Shown here one piece after another: positions 813-60,616 of a stretch of DNA of 64,000 nucleotides. The stretch covers positions 5,647 through 69,646 of the forward strand of contig JAKLKY010000004.1 in assembly GCA_023150415.1 (NCBI GenBank), written 5' to 3'. The notes under the pieces were generated by a model, which made no database searches, was not told the origin of the DNA, and saw nothing but the letters and a program-made list of their open reading frames with translations. Source of the stretch: Alphaproteobacteria bacterium. GTDB taxonomy: Bacteria; Pseudomonadota; Alphaproteobacteria; Micavibrionales; Micavibrionaceae. Numbering within the stretch: position 1 is the first letter of the stretch; each line of letters opens with the position of its first letter. The translations under genes and the position numbers were made by a program.

Positions 813-857
813 TGGTTGCGGGGGCCAGATTTGAACTGACGACCTTCAGGTTATGAG
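813..857 (-). repeat. attL: orphan 3' half of tRNA-fMet (anticodon loop to CCA); no D arm or 5' acceptor strand follows
   Basis: TGGTTGCGGGGGCCAGATTTGAACTGACGACCTTCAGGTTATGAG matches 60540-60584 at 39/45 nt. Sequence beyond 857 cannot pair as an anticodon stem or acceptor. Confidence 0.7.
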
Positions 858-983
858 TGCTGTGCGGCTCCCTTTCTCGCCCCTATGAAACATTACGCAC
901 ATCCACGCTAATGCGCTGATATTGCTTGATAATATCCTCTTTCCAAGCATCATGGACTTATACGCGCCTTGGCAGCTTTTCGC

Positions 984-1028
984 AGGAATTTGCTTCCGGA
1001 ATGCTTCCAAAGATGCAGGGCTGCATCG
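984..1028. repeat. Arm-type repeat, left copy (partner at 60442-60496)
   Basis: AGGAATTTGCTTCCGGAATGCTTCCAAA..GATGCAGGG..CTGCATCG recurs in the same orientation near the other island end. It contains a tandem TGCTTCC. Confidence 0.5.
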
Positions 1029-1077
1029 GCCAGCATCACCAGCGCATCGCCCATGATCAACGAAGGAGGATCCACAA

Positions 1078-2283
1078 ATGCCCATCAAACTCACCAAAAC
1101 CATCATCGATGAAACCAGACCGCAGGACAAAGAGCTGCTGATCTTCGACAGCCTGGTCTCCGGCTTTGGCCTGCGGGTCAGCCCGGGCGGGCGGAAAAGC
1201 TTCATCCTGCAATACCGGTTCCGCCGCCGCACCCGGCGTCTCACGCTTGGCGCTTATGGCACCATGACGCTGGATCAGGCACGCAGCCGCGCTGTTAAAT
1301 CCCTCGCGCTGGTGCAGGACGGCACCGATCCCGCCTACGAAAAACAGGCCGATAAAACCGCGCCGGATATGAACGATCTGTGCGACCGTTTCTGGGAGGA
1401 ACATGTACAGGTGCGCCTCAAACCCCGCACTGCCGCCGGTTATAAACGCGTGCTGGATAAATTCATCCGCCCGGCGCTGGGCGAGGTTTTGGTGCGGGAC
1501 ATCAAACGCGCCGACATCGCCGATTTGCATCACCGCATGCGCCGCACGCCCTATGATGCCAACCGCATGCTGGAGGTTATTTCCAAAATGTTCAATCTGG
1601 CCGAGATGTGGGGCTGGCGCGATGAGCACTCCAACCCGCGCCGTCACATCGCCAAATATCCCGAGCGCAAGCGAGAGCGGTATTTGACCCGGGAAGAGCT
1701 GCAGCGTCTGCTCTCCACCCTTGATTATGCCGAAGGGATTCTGGATGGCCGGATATTGGAGGGGCGCGAGGATCAAACCCCGCTGATCGTCCACCGCTCC
1801 GCTATCAACGCCTTTCGCCTGCTGGCCTTTACCGGCTGCCGCCTGATGGAGATCCAGACGCTGAAATGGAAATATATCGACCGCGAGCATCGCATCCTAC
1901 GCCTGCCCGATACCAAAACCGGAGCGCGCGCTGTGCCGGTCAGCCAGCATGTGATTGATCTTCTCACCGCCATCTGGAACCATGCCGACACGCCGCAGGA
2001 AAATGAGTTTGTGATTTACGGCACGCTGCCACTTGCGCATCTCACCGATCTGCAATCACCCTGGCGGCGCATCCGCAAGGCAGCGGGGTTGGAGGATGTG
2101 CGCATCCACGATCTGCGCCACAGCTTCGCCTCCTACGCCGTCTCTGCCGGGCATTCCCTGCCGATGATCGGCAAACTCCTCGGCCACACCCAGGTGCAGA
2201 CCACCGCCCGCTACGCGCATTTGATGACGGATCCGATGCATAAGGCAGCGGATGATATTGTCGGGAATATGCTGGGCGGGTAA
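1078..2283 (+). CDS. int: Tyrosine integrase, P4-like (DUF4102 arm-binding N-domain)
   Basis: N-terminus KELLIFDSLVSGFGLRVSPGGRKSFILQYR. Catalytic HDLRHSFAS and LGHTQVQTTARYAH (R-H-R-Y). RBS GAAGGAGGA lies upstream. The gene starts 220 bp from attL. Confidence 0.92.
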   Translation: MPIKLTKTIIDETRPQDKELLIFDSLVSGFGLRVSPGGRKSFILQYRFRRRTRRLTLGAYGTMTLDQARSRAVKSLALVQDGTDPAYEKQADKTAPDMNDLCDRFWEEHVQVRLKPRTAAGYKRVLDKFIRPALGEVLVRDIKRADIADLHHRMRRTPYDANRMLEVISKMFNLAEMWGWRDEHSNPRRHIAKYPERKRERYLTREELQRLLSTLDYAEGILDGRILEGREDQTPLIVHRSAINAFRLLAFTGCRLMEIQTLKWKYIDREHRILRLPDTKTGARAVPVSQHVIDLLTAIWNHADTPQENEFVIYGTLPLAHLTDLQSPWRRIRKAAGLEDVRIHDLRHSFASYAVSAGHSLPMIGKLLGHTQVQTTARYAHLMTDPMHKAADDIVGNMLGG

Positions 2284-2294
2284 AAAATAAAGAT

Positions 2295-3056
2295 TTATTT
2301 TTGTGCAGACTTCTTTTTCCAAACATCTTCTATGGATAAATATTCCTCTCCTGCAAGCGAAAGGGCGAATATTTTTGCTTCACTCACAGCAGATTCACCT
2401 TCAAACCAACTGCTTTGAATGAAAATCATATCAAAGCAAAGTAAATCTCTTGTTGGAAATAATGCTTTTATGTAAGGAATGAGAAGTTCTTGATTTAAAA
2501 ATGAGGTCGGAGAATTATCGTAGATTACAAGCCAGTTTTGATCAAATTTAGAAAAACTGTCTTCTTGAAGCTTCACTTGCTTCTTTTCAATCGCGTCTTT
2601 TATGAATAGTGACCACTCCCTTTCCGCTCCATCTCCTGCCCAGCCGCAACTTATTAACTTTTCAGCATTAAGAAGCTCTTTTTTCCGGTCATTTGACAAG
2701 GTCTTACCATGACGAAAAATGGCTGACTCTATAAAGTGTCCTGGTCTTTTATGTTCTACAAGAGCCTGATATGAGGAATAATCCTTTGACGTTGCTTCCG
2801 TCACCTCGACACCGATTTCTCGCCCATTACAAGTAAGCAAAAAATCAGGCCGCTCACGTTTTACCAGGGAAAGCGGATATGACAGATGTTCCGTATGTAC
2901 CAGGGTTGATAGTAACCGACATATAGAATATCGCTCAGTATGTTCTGTTGTCCGGCCTTTTGTTCTACCCGGCACAGAAATATCGACGCATGCTAAGGAC
3001 TTTAATAAATCATCTGCGCCGTTAGCAGATAAATAATTGTCGTTACCGTCCTTCAT
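2295..3056 (-). CDS. Hypothetical protein, AT-rich orphan; weak PD-(D/E)xK-like motif
   Basis: ORF 2295-3344 trimmed to ATG 3056, which has AAAGGAG 8 nt upstream. The longer form runs into the 3165-3734 gene. ERPDFLL...IGVEVTEA loosely resembles a nuclease core. Composition is unlike the neighbouring int. Confidence 0.5.
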   Translation of the reverse strand: MKDGNDNYLSANGADDLLKSLACVDISVPGRTKGRTTEHTERYSICRLLSTLVHTEHLSYPLSLVKRERPDFLLTCNGREIGVEVTEATSKDYSSYQALVEHKRPGHFIESAIFRHGKTLSNDRKKELLNAEKLISCGWAGDGAEREWSLFIKDAIEKKQVKLQEDSFSKFDQNWLVIYDNSPTSFLNQELLIPYIKALFPTRDLLCFDMIFIQSSWFEGESAVSEAKIFALSLAGEEYLSIEDVWKKKSAQK

Positions 3057-3164
3057 TCTCAATTCTCCTTTCAGCATAACATAATACAATGATTTCAAAG
3101 TGGTGCACATGAAAAGCAGATCAAGATCCCTAACAACTTGACTGTGTTTAGAACAGAAGCGTTC

Positions 3165-59365: not shown

Positions 59366-60154
59366 TTAAGCCCAGGTTTCGGGAATCCAGAGATTCCATT
59401 TACTGATCAAACGCGGGCTGGAAATAGCGGGATCAAGCTTGGCGTTTCCGGTTGTCATGCGGTCACGGCAGGGCTGAAGTAAAGCTTCGACGCCTGCTTG
59501 TTCTGCCAGAAAACCAAGCCTCTTGAATACGGCACCGTTTCCAAGCCGTGCGGCATAATCAATCAATTGATTTATATCCGATTCTTGATCTTTCAGGTAG
59601 GCTTTAAGGCATTCAAAAACATGCGTGATGCCGCCGCCCGTTTCCGGCGTATCGAGCATATCGACAATCGTGCGGTGCTTATCGGAGATGGACAGCTTTG
59701 TGCCGCCGCGCCATAGCGTTTTAAGGCCGAACAGATTTTCTTCTTTCGTGTGCTTCAGCGCAAAATCCGTTCCATGATAGGTCTGCGTTTTATGACGCAC
59801 TTCATGAGTTGTGAAAACGAAGATGCTGCGGAATATTTGTTCCGTGAAATCGTGGTGGCCCGCCGCCGTCCATCCGCCGATATAACAAGGTCCGAAAAGT
59901 GAAGGAGCCAGTATCCAAGGGTCTTCGATAACCTGTTGCGTTGTAAGGGCGTCCAGCGGCACAGGTGCGTAAAGACCGGGACCGACCCGCGCCAGCCAGC
60001 CTTGATGCGTCCAGCGGGCCAGCATTTTGGCAGCGTCCTGCCTTTCAAGGTCAAGTGCCTCCGCAGCGTCATCAATAGACACCAGCCTTCCTGCCGCCTG
60101 CAAAACAGTGGAAAGCCGCGCCCGGCCTTGACTTATAGAAGTTTCCTGTTCCAT
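59366..60154 (-). CDS. abiEi: AbiEi family type IV antitoxin / transcriptional regulator
   Basis: N-terminal wHTH (VSIDDAAEALDLERQDAAKMLARWTHQGWLARVGPGLY) and C-terminal AbiEi domain. ATG 60154 preferred over GTG 60181. Confidence 0.8.
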   Translation of the reverse strand: MEQETSISQGRARLSTVLQAAGRLVSIDDAAEALDLERQDAAKMLARWTHQGWLARVGPGLYAPVPLDALTTQQVIEDPWILAPSLFGPCYIGGWTAAGHHDFTEQIFRSIFVFTTHEVRHKTQTYHGTDFALKHTKEENLFGLKTLWRGGTKLSISDKHRTIVDMLDTPETGGGITHVFECLKAYLKDQESDINQLIDYAARLGNGAVFKRLGFLAEQAGVEALLQPCRDRMTTGNAKLDPAISSPRLISKWNLWIPETWA

Positions 60155-60213
60155 TGCTATACTATTGCTCCGTTTTTTCACGAAAAACGTGAATTTATAG
60201 ATTAATAATATAG
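60151..60213. repeat. 63-bp abiE promoter/operator unit, proximal copy (contains TTCACG-N5-CGTGAA)
   Basis: Near-identical to 60237-60299 at an 86-bp offset. This copy ends in the abiEi ATG. Confidence 0.6.
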
Positions 60214-60236
60214 TAAAAACCTTACGATTGCACGAA

Positions 60237-60299
60237 CAATAGCTATACTATCGATCCATTTTTTCACGAAAAATGTGAATTTATGGATCAGTAATATAG
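60237..60299. repeat. 63-bp abiE promoter/operator unit, distal copy (contains TTCACG-N5-TGTGAA)
   Basis: Same unit as 60151-60213. ATT replaces the ATG at the equivalent position. Confidence 0.6.
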
Positions 60300-60441
60300 C
60301 AGAGTTAACGCAAGTAGGGGGAGGATCGGTTTAAATTTTCGCCGATAAGGGTACTCACAGTACCGTTACAGCAACAAATTTAAACCCTGAGGCCTGACGC
60401 CGATGCACCACTTATTTTCGCTTGTTTTCGAAGGGGTTGTA

Positions 60442-60496
60442 AGGAATTTGCTTCCGGATTGCTTCCAAATCCGATGCAGGGTATCGATCTGCATCG
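60442..60496. repeat. Arm-type repeat, right copy (partner at 984-1028)
   Basis: AGGAATTTGCTTCCGGATTGCTTCCAAATCCGATGCAGGGTATCGATCTGCATCG, 43 bp inside attR. Confidence 0.5.
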
Positions 60497-60539
60497 CATC
60501 GAAACACCAATTAAGTCATTGAAATATAAAGAAAAAAAT

Positions 60540-60616
60540 TGGTTGCGGGAGTAGGATTTGAACCTACGACCTTCAGGTTATGAGCCTGACGAGCTACCGG
60601 GCTGCTCCACCCCGCG
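60540..60616 (-). tRNA. Initiator tRNA-fMet (anticodon CAU); its 3' 45 nt double as attR
   Basis: Reverse complement CGCGGGGTGGAGCAGCCCGGTAGCTCGTCAGGCTCATAACCTGAAGGTCGTAGGTTCAAATCCTACTCCCGCAACCA folds as a 77-nt cloverleaf. C1-A72 mismatch and CAU anticodon are initiator hallmarks. CCA is encoded. Confidence 0.95.

Follow-up and report, generated by a model that had tools for sequence, protein, structure and literature searches.

A probable integrase-borne nitrate respiration island of ~59.7 kb between two 3' halves of an initiator tRNA gene

Why does an uncultured alphaproteobacterium of the Micavibrionaceae carry a complete gene for initiator tRNA (tRNA-fMet) at one end of a large gene block and an orphaned 3' half of such a gene at the other, next to an integrase gene? 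Here, we address this question for a 64,000-nucleotide (nt) stretch of DNA (the window; positions 5,647 to 69,646 of contig JAKLKY010000004.1, GCA_023150415.1), which is part of a 76-kb contig of a metagenome-assembled genome (MAG) with proteins MCK6417541 to MCK6417600. We conclude with considerable confidence that positions 858-60584 (~59.7 kb, 48.6% G+C) are a genuine integrase-borne island that entered the 3' half of the tRNA-fMet gene by conservative site-specific insertion. The repeats, the anatomy of the tRNA, the integrase, the presence of related islands in several host backgrounds and a junction of the type expected for the attachment (att) site of a free element (attP) carry this conclusion. 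The repeat pair comprises these features:

60540-60616, minus strand: complete tRNA-Met(CAT) gene (ARAGORN; Rfam tRNA model, 61.5 bits at 60543-60616)
60585-60616, minus strand: host-derived 5' half of the tRNA-fMet gene, positions 1-31, CGCGGGG... with G7 (ARAGORN drawing)
60540-60584, minus strand: island-supplied 3' half of the tRNA-fMet gene, positions 32-76, with U66 and encoded CCA (ARAGORN; the half is shared with contigs L022, L158 and L159)
813-857, minus strand: orphan 3' half of tRNA-fMet at the left att site (attL), positions 32-76, with C66 and encoded CCA (repeat comparison; no tRNA call)
843-857: left copy of the 15-nt segment CCTTCAGGTTATGAG, the putative strand-exchange region (junction comparison)

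The orphan (TGGTTGCGGGGGCCAGATTTGAACTGACGACCTTCAGGTTATGAG) and the 3' half of the gene (TGGTTGCGGGAGTAGGATTTGAACCTACGACCTTCAGGTTATGAG) match at 39 of 45 nt, and a repeat search scores the pair as 47 nt with 87% identity (811-857 and 60538-60584). The 19 nt common to both, ACGACCTTCAGGTTATGAG, correspond to tRNA positions 32-50; they have two exact sites in the window (839-857 and 60566-60584), and allowing up to three mismatches adds none. All six differences fall on tRNA positions 51, 52, 62, 63 and 64 in the T stem and on position 66. Based on the ARAGORN drawings, both T stems pair, that of the orphan (GTCAG/CTGGC) with one U50·G64 wobble and that of the gene (GTAGG/CCTAC) entirely by Watson-Crick pairs; the gene has a G7·U66 wobble in its acceptor stem, while C66 of the orphan fits G7. 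The complete gene is the only tRNA that ARAGORN calls in the window, and none is called in the 300 nt surrounding 813-857; therefore, the orphan is a fragment and not part of a second complete gene. On each of these points, the calculations bear out a previous sequence-only reading of the locus, which had described the repeat, its core and differences, the completeness of only the right copy and the fit of C66 to G7, and had proposed tRNA calls at both loci. Genomes do contain tRNA fragments, but it is exceedingly improbable that the similarity arose by chance or from decay of a duplicate tRNA gene unrelated to integration: none of 100 shuffles contained two matches to the 19-mer, the fragment adjoins an integrase gene, and at least five other assemblies have the same architecture.

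We suggest that attP would carry its own copy of tRNA positions 32-76 and that the integrase, which is of the DUF4102/P4 type, would exchange strands within CCTTCAGGTTATGAG. Insertion would then join the host 5' half (60585-60616) to the island 3' half (60540-60584) and strand the previous 3' half as the orphan at the far end, beside the integrase gene. The island copy would stem from another tRNA-fMet allele, of the kind that pairs with A7; as a result, the gene would be a chimera in which the T stem is new but fully paired and G7·U66 forms a wobble. The corresponding junction sequences are GAACTGACGACCTTCAGGTTATGAGTGCTGTGCGG for attL, GAACCTACGACCTTCAGGTTATGAGCCTGACGAGC continuing to CCCCGCGATAAACCGAGTG for the right site (attR), GAACCTACGACCTTCAGGTTATGAGTGCTGTGCGG for attP and GAACTGACGACCTTCAGGTTATGAGCCTGACGAGC for the empty chromosomal site (attB). 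To survey natural alleles, public metagenomes were scanned with the native T arm, the core and the 5' anticodon stem, which matched more than 120 contigs. The reconstructed attB gene, made up of the orphan and the present 5' half (G7-C66; restored site GAACTGACGACCTTCAGGTTATGAGCCTGACG), is the commonest allele and is found exactly in 63 of ~75 full-length tRNA-fMet genes. The few alleles with U66 carry A7. Thus, natural genes keep a Watson-Crick pair at 7:66, and the G7·U66 of the window derives from mixed halves.

The chimeric tRNA has initiator hallmarks, i.e., the CAU anticodon, C1 opposite A72 and A11:U24. Its anticodon stem has two consecutive G:C pairs (30:40 and 31:39) instead of three, as the pair at 29:41 is A:U. 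All ~75 intact metagenome alleles have the same A:U pair, arguing that it is a lineage trait and not damage; initiator tRNAs without the full G:C triplet are known in some alphaproteobacteria. The predicted folding energies of the cloverleaves are -25.9 kcal/mol for the chimera, -27.4 kcal/mol for the reconstructed native tRNA and -26.8 kcal/mol for the gene in L022, and ARAGORN calls all three as tRNA-Met. In Escherichia coli tRNA-fMet, A72, C71, G70, C69 and A73 are the acceptor-end determinants of formylation. Because the island half retains these features (C1 opposite A72, G2:C71, C3:G70, C69 and A73), we predict that the chimera is a functional initiator and that the change is near-neutral, with at most a slight shift in stability. 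Since the copy of the element is a different allele, the gene amounts to a natural "domain swap" (new T stem and G7·U66) that offers a test of how far changes outside the identity elements are tolerated. The sequence-only reading held that the initiator tRNA of the cell now uses an island-supplied half. The origin of the half stands, as the same half, with the T stem GTAGG/CCTAC and the acceptor strand UCCCGCA, lies at the AbiE end of the islands in L022, L158 and L159; "the" initiator tRNA assumes a single gene copy.

The integrase and the two arms of the att site are as follows:

1078-2283, plus strand: tyrosine integrase of the DUF4102/P4-CP4-57 type, 401 amino acids (aa) (Pfam, PHROGs, structure matches)
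858-1077, plus strand: integrase-side arm (P') of the att site, with the invariant block 981-1017, CGCAGGAATTTGCTTCCGGAATGCTTCCAAAGATGCA
60182-60539: AbiE-side arm (P) of the att site, with the repeat 60442-60469; conserved in L022 and L158

The integrase gene starts (ATG at 1078) 220 nt past the left core, and its product has the Pfam domains Arm-DNA-bind_3 (PF13356, DUF4102; 5e-19, residues 5-91), Phage_int_SAM_3 and Phage_integrase (PF00589; 1e-23). It matches phrog_1 (3.6e-66), its N-terminus matches the CP4-like integrase structures 3ju0 (7e-10) and 3jtz (6e-6), and its catalytic domain aligns with XerC/XerD, with the motifs GCRL, HDLRHSF, LGH and ARY in the alignment to the XerC-like 4a8e. 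The earlier assignment of a P4-type integrase 220 bp inside attL is thus upheld. Among 50,697 phage records, the closest integrase, that of Aeromonas phage ST4, is just 36.7% identical; the protein shares the superfamily and architecture of P4-like integrases without belonging to a close clade of the characterised P4-like phage integrases. Its cluster at 90% identity holds 76 sequences, which stem from many MAGs and metagenomes. The gene is under strong constraint: compared with the window, that of L028 has 74 nt but only 7 aa differences, and that of L008 (SRR26831616, 251-1456) has 83 nt and no aa differences, the latter figure being biased by retrieval of L008 through an exact-protein look-up. 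In L008, the integrase gene is preceded by an island-type T arm, and the cargo after it differs from that of the window.

A 28-nt block of the integrase-side arm (984-1011) recurs with 27 of 28 nt in the AbiE-side arm (60442-60469), where the near-copy of CGCAGGAATTTGCTTCCGGAATGCTTCCAAAGATGCA spans 60442-60480. The 37-nt CGCAGGAATTTGCTTCCGGAATGCTTCCAAAGATGCA (981-1017) does not vary between the integrase-side arms of four versions of the island; among them, L159 retains it even though its arm has diverged elsewhere and suffered deletions. In a circular form, the core would have one of the two copies on either side, in direct orientation, and we infer that they are candidate arm-type integrase sites and/or contain the promoter of the integrase gene. 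Upstream of abiEi lies a 61-nt tandem pair (60153-60213 and 60239-60299; 87% identity, 86-nt spacing) that is also conserved in L022 and L158 and is probably a paired operator for autoregulation by AbiEi rather than part of the att site.

Contigs retrieved mostly by exact-protein look-ups allowed us to compare the island across hosts. L005 (817-12283) and L006 (818-7172) are from the same strain, 100% identical, and have the orphan of the window at the junction. L009 and L010, from two other samples, are 99.8% identical; their orphan has the acceptor strand UCCCGUA, and the contigs are too short for context. L028-L035, which include the 1.53-Mb contig of GCA_021463545.1, are 93.5-94.4% identical and have the orphan TGGTTGCGGGGGCAGGATTTGAACCTGCGGCCTTCAGGTTATGAG with the T stem GCAGG/CCTGC. 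L159 (JGI Ga0558718_00895, 155 kb; AlkB 88% identical) has a cargo with 89.6% nt identity and an integrase with 81.5% nt and 88% aa identity; its order is alkB, an 18.6-kb defence island, the island-type half as an orphan, the integrase gene and the nitrate island. L022 (GCA_020638415.1) is 97-98% identical over positions 47.9-60.6 kb of the window; there, the island-type half continues into a host 5' half whose A7 pairs with U66, and the host flank encodes HIT, a Suv3-like helicase, HU and Lon. In L158 (GCA_020442385.1), the right end of the island (93.4% identity) ends in an orphaned island-type half, followed by a 4.4-kb integrase-less element, an intact native-type tRNA-fMet gene and thiO-thiS-thiG. 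In a Rhodospirillales MAG, the coordinates place the left end of the island past the contig end.

Two observations on these contigs concern other elements at the site. Beyond a second integrase gene, described below, L028 encodes AlpA, another integrase, a DNA methylase and DrmE (DISARM), i.e., another island stacked at the same tRNA site. The 18.6-kb defence island of the L156/L159 relative encodes HTH_17, Dcm, Vsr, HATPase, Z1, DUF4420, AIPR and OLD-like proteins, and many genes of the nitrate island in L159 are split through frameshift errors or decay.

The island is thus found in differing host flanks and with differing displaced halves (L022, L028, L009/L010, L158 and L159). The integrase-side fragment takes four host-dependent forms, while the adjoining island arm is constant, which argues that this fragment is host-derived or pre-existing. 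In GCA_021463545.1, the fragment differs from the window at two positions of the 19-mer (GCGGCC... vs ACGACC...), and the only stretch that is identical in every junction compared (window, L008, L009/L010, L028-L035, L158 and L159) is the 15-nt CCTTCAGGTTATGAG, tRNA positions 32-46. This would place strand exchange in the anticodon loop or the 3' anticodon stem and narrows the crossover that had been proposed for the 19-nt core. In total, at least two alleles of the 3' half are element-borne in this island family and four are found in junctions.

The orphan had also been regarded as the displaced ancestral 3' half. That it is displaced is supported by the four host variants, by its identity with the commonest allele and by L158, in which the 3' half of the intact tRNA-fMet gene is 100% identical to the orphan over 47 nt; "ancestral" can only mean the half present just before insertion because tandem accretion is common at this site and the conserved host flank ends at ~445. 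These same observations raise the question of whether an earlier element of the island family delivered the orphan, with the spacer 446-812 as its remnant and both halves being element-borne. Tandem accretion is frequent (L028, L158 and L159). In L028, a second, divergent and divergently oriented DUF4102 integrase gene (8309-9559, minus strand) lies immediately outside the orphan. The integrase-less element of L158 (JAGRKE010000012.1, 5180-9731; AAA_14/DUF4143, DUF488 and Mu_F-like), whose last 28 tRNA-proximal nt resemble the arm of the island, carries exactly the native-type half and resembles a cis-mobilisable remnant added to the stack by accretion. Nevertheless, we consider delivery by an earlier element unlikely: positions 793-812, just outside the orphan, are unlike the P arm of the island family, the spacer matches none of the elements fetched, and the orphan represents the most frequent natural allele and forms perfect pairs with the host 5' half. 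We therefore retain the view that the orphan is the half displaced by this island. In L084 (7314-9890) and other metagenome contigs, a 40%-identical integrase is encoded ~1.5 kb from a native-type tRNA-fMet gene, and other metagenome contigs contain tRNA-fMet fragments cut at points outside the anticodon loop, pointing to use of this gene by additional families of elements.

Does the island still move? In sample SRR17665565, L015 contains 1,259 nt of the right end of the island (100% identity), the island-type half, the core and then TGCTGTGCGGC, which corresponds to 858-868 of the window. This junction appears to be the expected attP sequence, from either a circle or the boundary of tandem copies, and would be a product of the integrase either way. 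L007, an integrase-side contig from the same sample, begins with the first base of the core, which is what an assembly graph with one node shared by attL and attP would produce. We rejected the junction as proof of a circle because tandem arrays are common in the island family, and the break points of k=31 contigs as proof of attB because they also fit tRNA-fMet genes of other organisms in that metagenome. The attP junction had no match in a scan of IMG/VR, and the restored attB of the strain of the window was not seen.

Whether the island has its own means of transfer depends on its backbone, the relevant features of which are the following:

51323-53464, minus strand: primase-helicase (Pfam AAA_25; phrog_239, DNA primase/helicase, 3.6e-53)
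53881-54171, minus strand: HTH_17/AlpA-like small DNA-binding protein, candidate excisionase or regulator (Pfam HTH_17, 1.4e-7; phrog_66, annotated as "excisionase and transcriptional regulator", 6e-8)

Together with the integrase (phrog_1), these proteins form the trio of P4-like satellites, and the backbone, to which the AbiE toxin-antitoxin pair also belongs, resembles P4-like or integrative mobilisable elements. A homologue of the primase-helicase with 62% identity is encoded in an unrelated island beside alkB of L019. The unassigned backbone open reading frames (ORFs) had no PHROG match, and no genes for helper exploitation (capsid size, cos, psu/sid/delta-like) were recognised, although a lack of matches is no proof that such genes are missing; with its 60 kb, the island is also unlikely to fit into a small capsid. 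Five ORFs have no match of any kind (2295-3344, 49957-50358, 50850-51326, 53448-54005 and 54265-55380).

Several observations weigh against a mobile, integrase-borne island at this site, the first of which concern mobility. The attP-type junction could equally reflect a tandem array, and such arrays are seen in the island family. Moreover, Pfam, PHROGs and PADLOC scans of the ORFs revealed no gene for a relaxase, a coupling protein or type IV secretion; accordingly, the island is not an integrative and conjugative element (ICE), and its intercellular transfer presumably needs a helper. Could it be a fixed, immobile relic, with the L015 junction and the integrase-side fragment of L008 representing tandem copies or other hosts? 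Tandem arrays produce an identical junction sequence, the related copy in L159 has many split ORFs, and transfer machinery was not found, all as a relic would have it. However, the integrase ORF is intact and constrained, islands with 97-100% identity and differing host junctions or flanks indicate recent movement, and the contigs of SRR17665565 (L007 starting at the core and L015 crossing it into the integrase arm) describe a graph with both attL and attP. We therefore regard a relic as doubtful and suggest that the island may excise at present.

The second set of observations concerns the host flanks:

1-394, plus strand: 3' part of a gene for an alkB-like 2-oxoglutarate-Fe(II) dioxygenase, host flank (translation; full protein MCK6417541.1, AlkB)
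446-812: AT-rich spacer, 367 nt, 38% G+C; among the sequences fetched, it matches only contigs of the same strain
60710-64000: right host flank with thiO, thiS, thiG, a tadA-like deaminase gene, rluB and the start of rsmD (Pfam/NCBIfam; 59.6% G+C)

On the left, the alkB flank is 84-89% identical at the nt level to L018-L021 and L156 (86.6% over 1.2 kb for the alkB side of L018-L020), and the similarity stops at 428-445; the conserved flank as such extends to ~442-445, just past the alkB terminator hairpin. Beyond ~445, the relatives have HipBA, an AbiE/primase island or a Dcm-Vsr-Z1-AIPR defence island, and the interval from alkB to tRNA-fMet is thus a hotspot at which defence and metabolic islands stack in a group of uncultured alphaproteobacteria that has been sampled widely. 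The spacer may be the original region downstream of the tRNA gene or a relic of an older element. On the right, the sequence beyond the tRNA 5' half is ATAAACCGAGTGAGAG (60617 onward), and the synteny of tRNA-fMet with thiO-thiS-thiG is also seen in L158.

The two flanks differ: the left, at 45-52% G+C, is that of a clade with rich sampling (~95 AlkB clusters at 82-91% identity), while the right has 59.6% G+C, ThiO relatives with at most 54% identity and a RluB with one match at 91% and the rest at 74% or below. The G+C content of the island (48.6%) is distinct from that of the right flank (59.6%) and not from that of the left (45-52%); consequently, we dropped G+C contrast as evidence for an island, as it is valid only against the right flank. 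An island-free copy of the locus was not found among AlkB relatives, in ThiO and ThiG look-ups or in a scan of GTDB genomes. In the AlkB relatives (91% and 88%), the sequence up to 10 kb from alkB contained neither a tRNA gene nor the core, the GTDB scan with ThiO returned only Hyphomicrobium loci at 41-42% identity without a tRNA nearby, the ThiO homologue search gave none above 54%, and exact-protein look-ups of ThiO and ThiG gave only 1-2 kb contigs broken inside the tRNA. None of the tRNA-fMet loci retrieved from metagenomes had the flanks of the window, hence there is no strict empty site among them. Finally, every k=31 Logan contig ends within the tRNA, so that none confirms the link between the island and thiO.

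These data could be accounted for by a metagenome misassembly at tRNA-fMet that joined the island and alkB (~50% G+C) of one organism to the 5' half and thiOSG-rluB (~60%) of another. Besides the contrasts in G+C content and in AlkB, ThiO and RluB relatives, the 51 nt made up of the core and the 5' half are identical in many organisms, and the Logan contigs break exactly at the tRNA. We nevertheless consider a misassembly quite unlikely. An independent NCBI contig of 6,189 bp appears, from accessions two apart, to hold the identical AbiEii (MCK6693178.1) and a ThiO fragment in the same 90% cluster (MCK6693180.1); L158, from another genome, has the island family beside tRNA-fMet-thiOSG; C66 of the orphan fits G7 of the present 5' half; and the usual metagenome assemblers go up to k-mers longer than 51 nt. 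If a misassembly did occur, the element would still be a tRNA-fMet island, while the G7·U66 chimera, the alkB...thiO site and the identity of the right flank would be artefacts. On balance, insertion into the tRNA-fMet gene between alkB and thiO accounts best for the locus.

What does the island bring to its host? The remaining features are the following:

3771-11612: molybdenum cofactor (Moco) module (Pfam; L005 gene calls; Rfam)
3771-4847: MoeB (Pfam)
within 3771-11612: MobA, MoaE and MoaD, with an MCP/PAS sensor and TauE (Pfam)
9468-10511: MoaC-MoaB (Pfam)
10501-11514: MoaA (Pfam)
11484-11612, minus strand: Moco riboswitch directly upstream of moaA (Rfam RF01055, 49.2 bits)
11692-28274: nitrate respiration module (Pfam; NCBIfam)
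within 11692-28274: NnrU, Fnr/Crp, NnrS, HemN, PpiC, NarI, NarJ and NarH (Pfam; HemN by NCBIfam, 440 bits)
19628-23359: NarG (Pfam)
23451-26090: fused NarK-NarK transporter (Pfam; NCBIfam NarK family)
within 11692-28274, after NarK-NarK: second Fnr/Crp regulator and MoeA (Pfam)
28477-41627: module for anaerobic support and nitric oxide (NO) stress (Pfam; NCBIfam)
28477-30974, plus strand: UbiT, UbiU and UbiV for oxygen-independent ubiquinone synthesis (above the NCBIfam curated cut-offs)
30953-33376, minus strand: ThiO-like FAD oxidase (under the ThiO cut-off), BioC-like methyltransferase and alpha/beta hydrolase beside ubiV (Pfam)
33591-35633: NrdD (Pfam)
within 28477-41627: NrdG, Rrf2 regulator, flavohaemoglobin Hmp, cupin, RibB, RibH and outer-membrane porin (Pfam)
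within 28477-41627: YtfE/RIC Fe-S repair protein (above the NCBIfam curated cut-off)
41788-49906, minus strand: copper/silver efflux, P-type ATPase and CusC-CusA-CusB (Pfam)
55250-60181: defence/stabilisation slot (Pfam; PADLOC)
55250-57857: DitA-like DUF5677, ApeA_NTD and a metallophosphatase fragment (Pfam; PADLOC DitA, 2.3e-27)
57911-59353: AbiEii-WYL (PADLOC AbiEii, 2.9e-195)
59366-60181: AbiEi (PADLOC AbiEi, 6.8e-116)

The nrdDG, hemN, hmp, ytfE and narGHJI genes thus share a mobile island with the UbiTUV genes. As judged from its gene content, the cargo is a putative self-contained kit for anaerobic nitrate respiration and for coping with NO and copper stress, which bundles the nitrate reductase with Moco synthesis, UbiTUV, HemN, NrdDG, NO detoxification and repair. 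Because nitrate reductase and the other anaerobic needs come in one package, the island is a candidate means of turning an aerobe into a facultative anaerobe in a single step. With the riboswitch, it brings its own cofactor-sensing control of the Moco operon. The slot at 55250-57857 is variable; L158 (392-2488) has DUF488, an AlkB-like oxygenase and a full metallophosphatase there instead.

We can also conceive of a more far-reaching scenario in which serial insertion, accretion and excision rewrite the initiator T arm and acceptor 3' strand, the resulting combinations are non-neutral, either tuning initiation or changing the att site so far that competing elements are favoured or excluded, and the island turns an aerobic Micavibrio-like lineage into a nitrate respirer in one step and moves with a helper. 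We consider this scenario very unlikely as a whole.

How does the island compare with known systems? It is a member of the class of tRNA-integrated elements with a DUF4102/P4-type integrase and crossover in the anticodon loop, and its mechanism of integration is ordinary, well known and found in textbooks; what is noteworthy is that the target is the initiator tRNA gene, that the 3' half has been swapped for another allele and that the anaerobic kit is complete and includes UbiTUV. Like other tRNA-integrated islands, it has an integrase gene at one end, restores a complete tRNA gene upon insertion, with a direct-repeat fragment left at the opposite end, and occurs in tandem stacks. It differs in that the target is an initiator tRNA gene and in that the copy of the element is another natural allele, giving a 39/45 repeat and an altered T stem and 7:66 pair. 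A literature search found no paper on integration into an initiator tRNA gene, a weak negative; papers on Sinorhizobium meliloti were set aside because they concern tRNA genes carried by prophages and not integration into tRNA-fMet. In comparison with P4 and CP4-57, the Arm-DNA-bind_3, SAM-like and catalytic domains are the same, and a primase-helicase and an AlpA-like protein are also present; however, the ~48 kb of metabolic cargo makes the island far larger than P4, and its integrase is at most 36.7% identical to phage integrases.

In streptococci, ICEs and cis-mobilisable elements (CIMEs) accumulate in tandem in a site-specific manner, including elements that lack an integrase. The 4.4-kb element between att-type repeats in L158 and the tandem islands in L028 and L159 are of the same kind; the integrase family and the target are different, and cis-mobilisation is putative here. 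The anticodon-loop sublocation is classical for tRNA-targeting integrases in the model of Reiter (1989) and Williams (2002), as reviewed in a preprint (bioRxiv 10.1101/2020.11.02.365908); the same preprint cites 19 bp across the anticodon loop as the requirement for integration of ICEAfe1 of Acidithiobacillus ferrooxidans. The likely recombination core of the island is likewise a short segment centred on the anticodon loop, while ICEAfe1 is conjugative and relaxase and type IV secretion genes were not found in the island.

With regard to cargo, a conjugative element of Thermus thermophilus reportedly carries a mobile gene set for nitrate respiration. Similarly, Sphingopyxis granuli TFA has a strain-specific narUGHJI cluster (PMC4741004). 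As in these two systems, a horizontally acquired respiratory nitrate reductase would allow anaerobic growth of an otherwise aerobic lineage; unlike them, the island combines the nar genes with a complete Moco pathway, UbiTUV, NrdDG, HemN, Hmp and YtfE on one integrase-bounded unit, and its host is an uncultured alphaproteobacterium.

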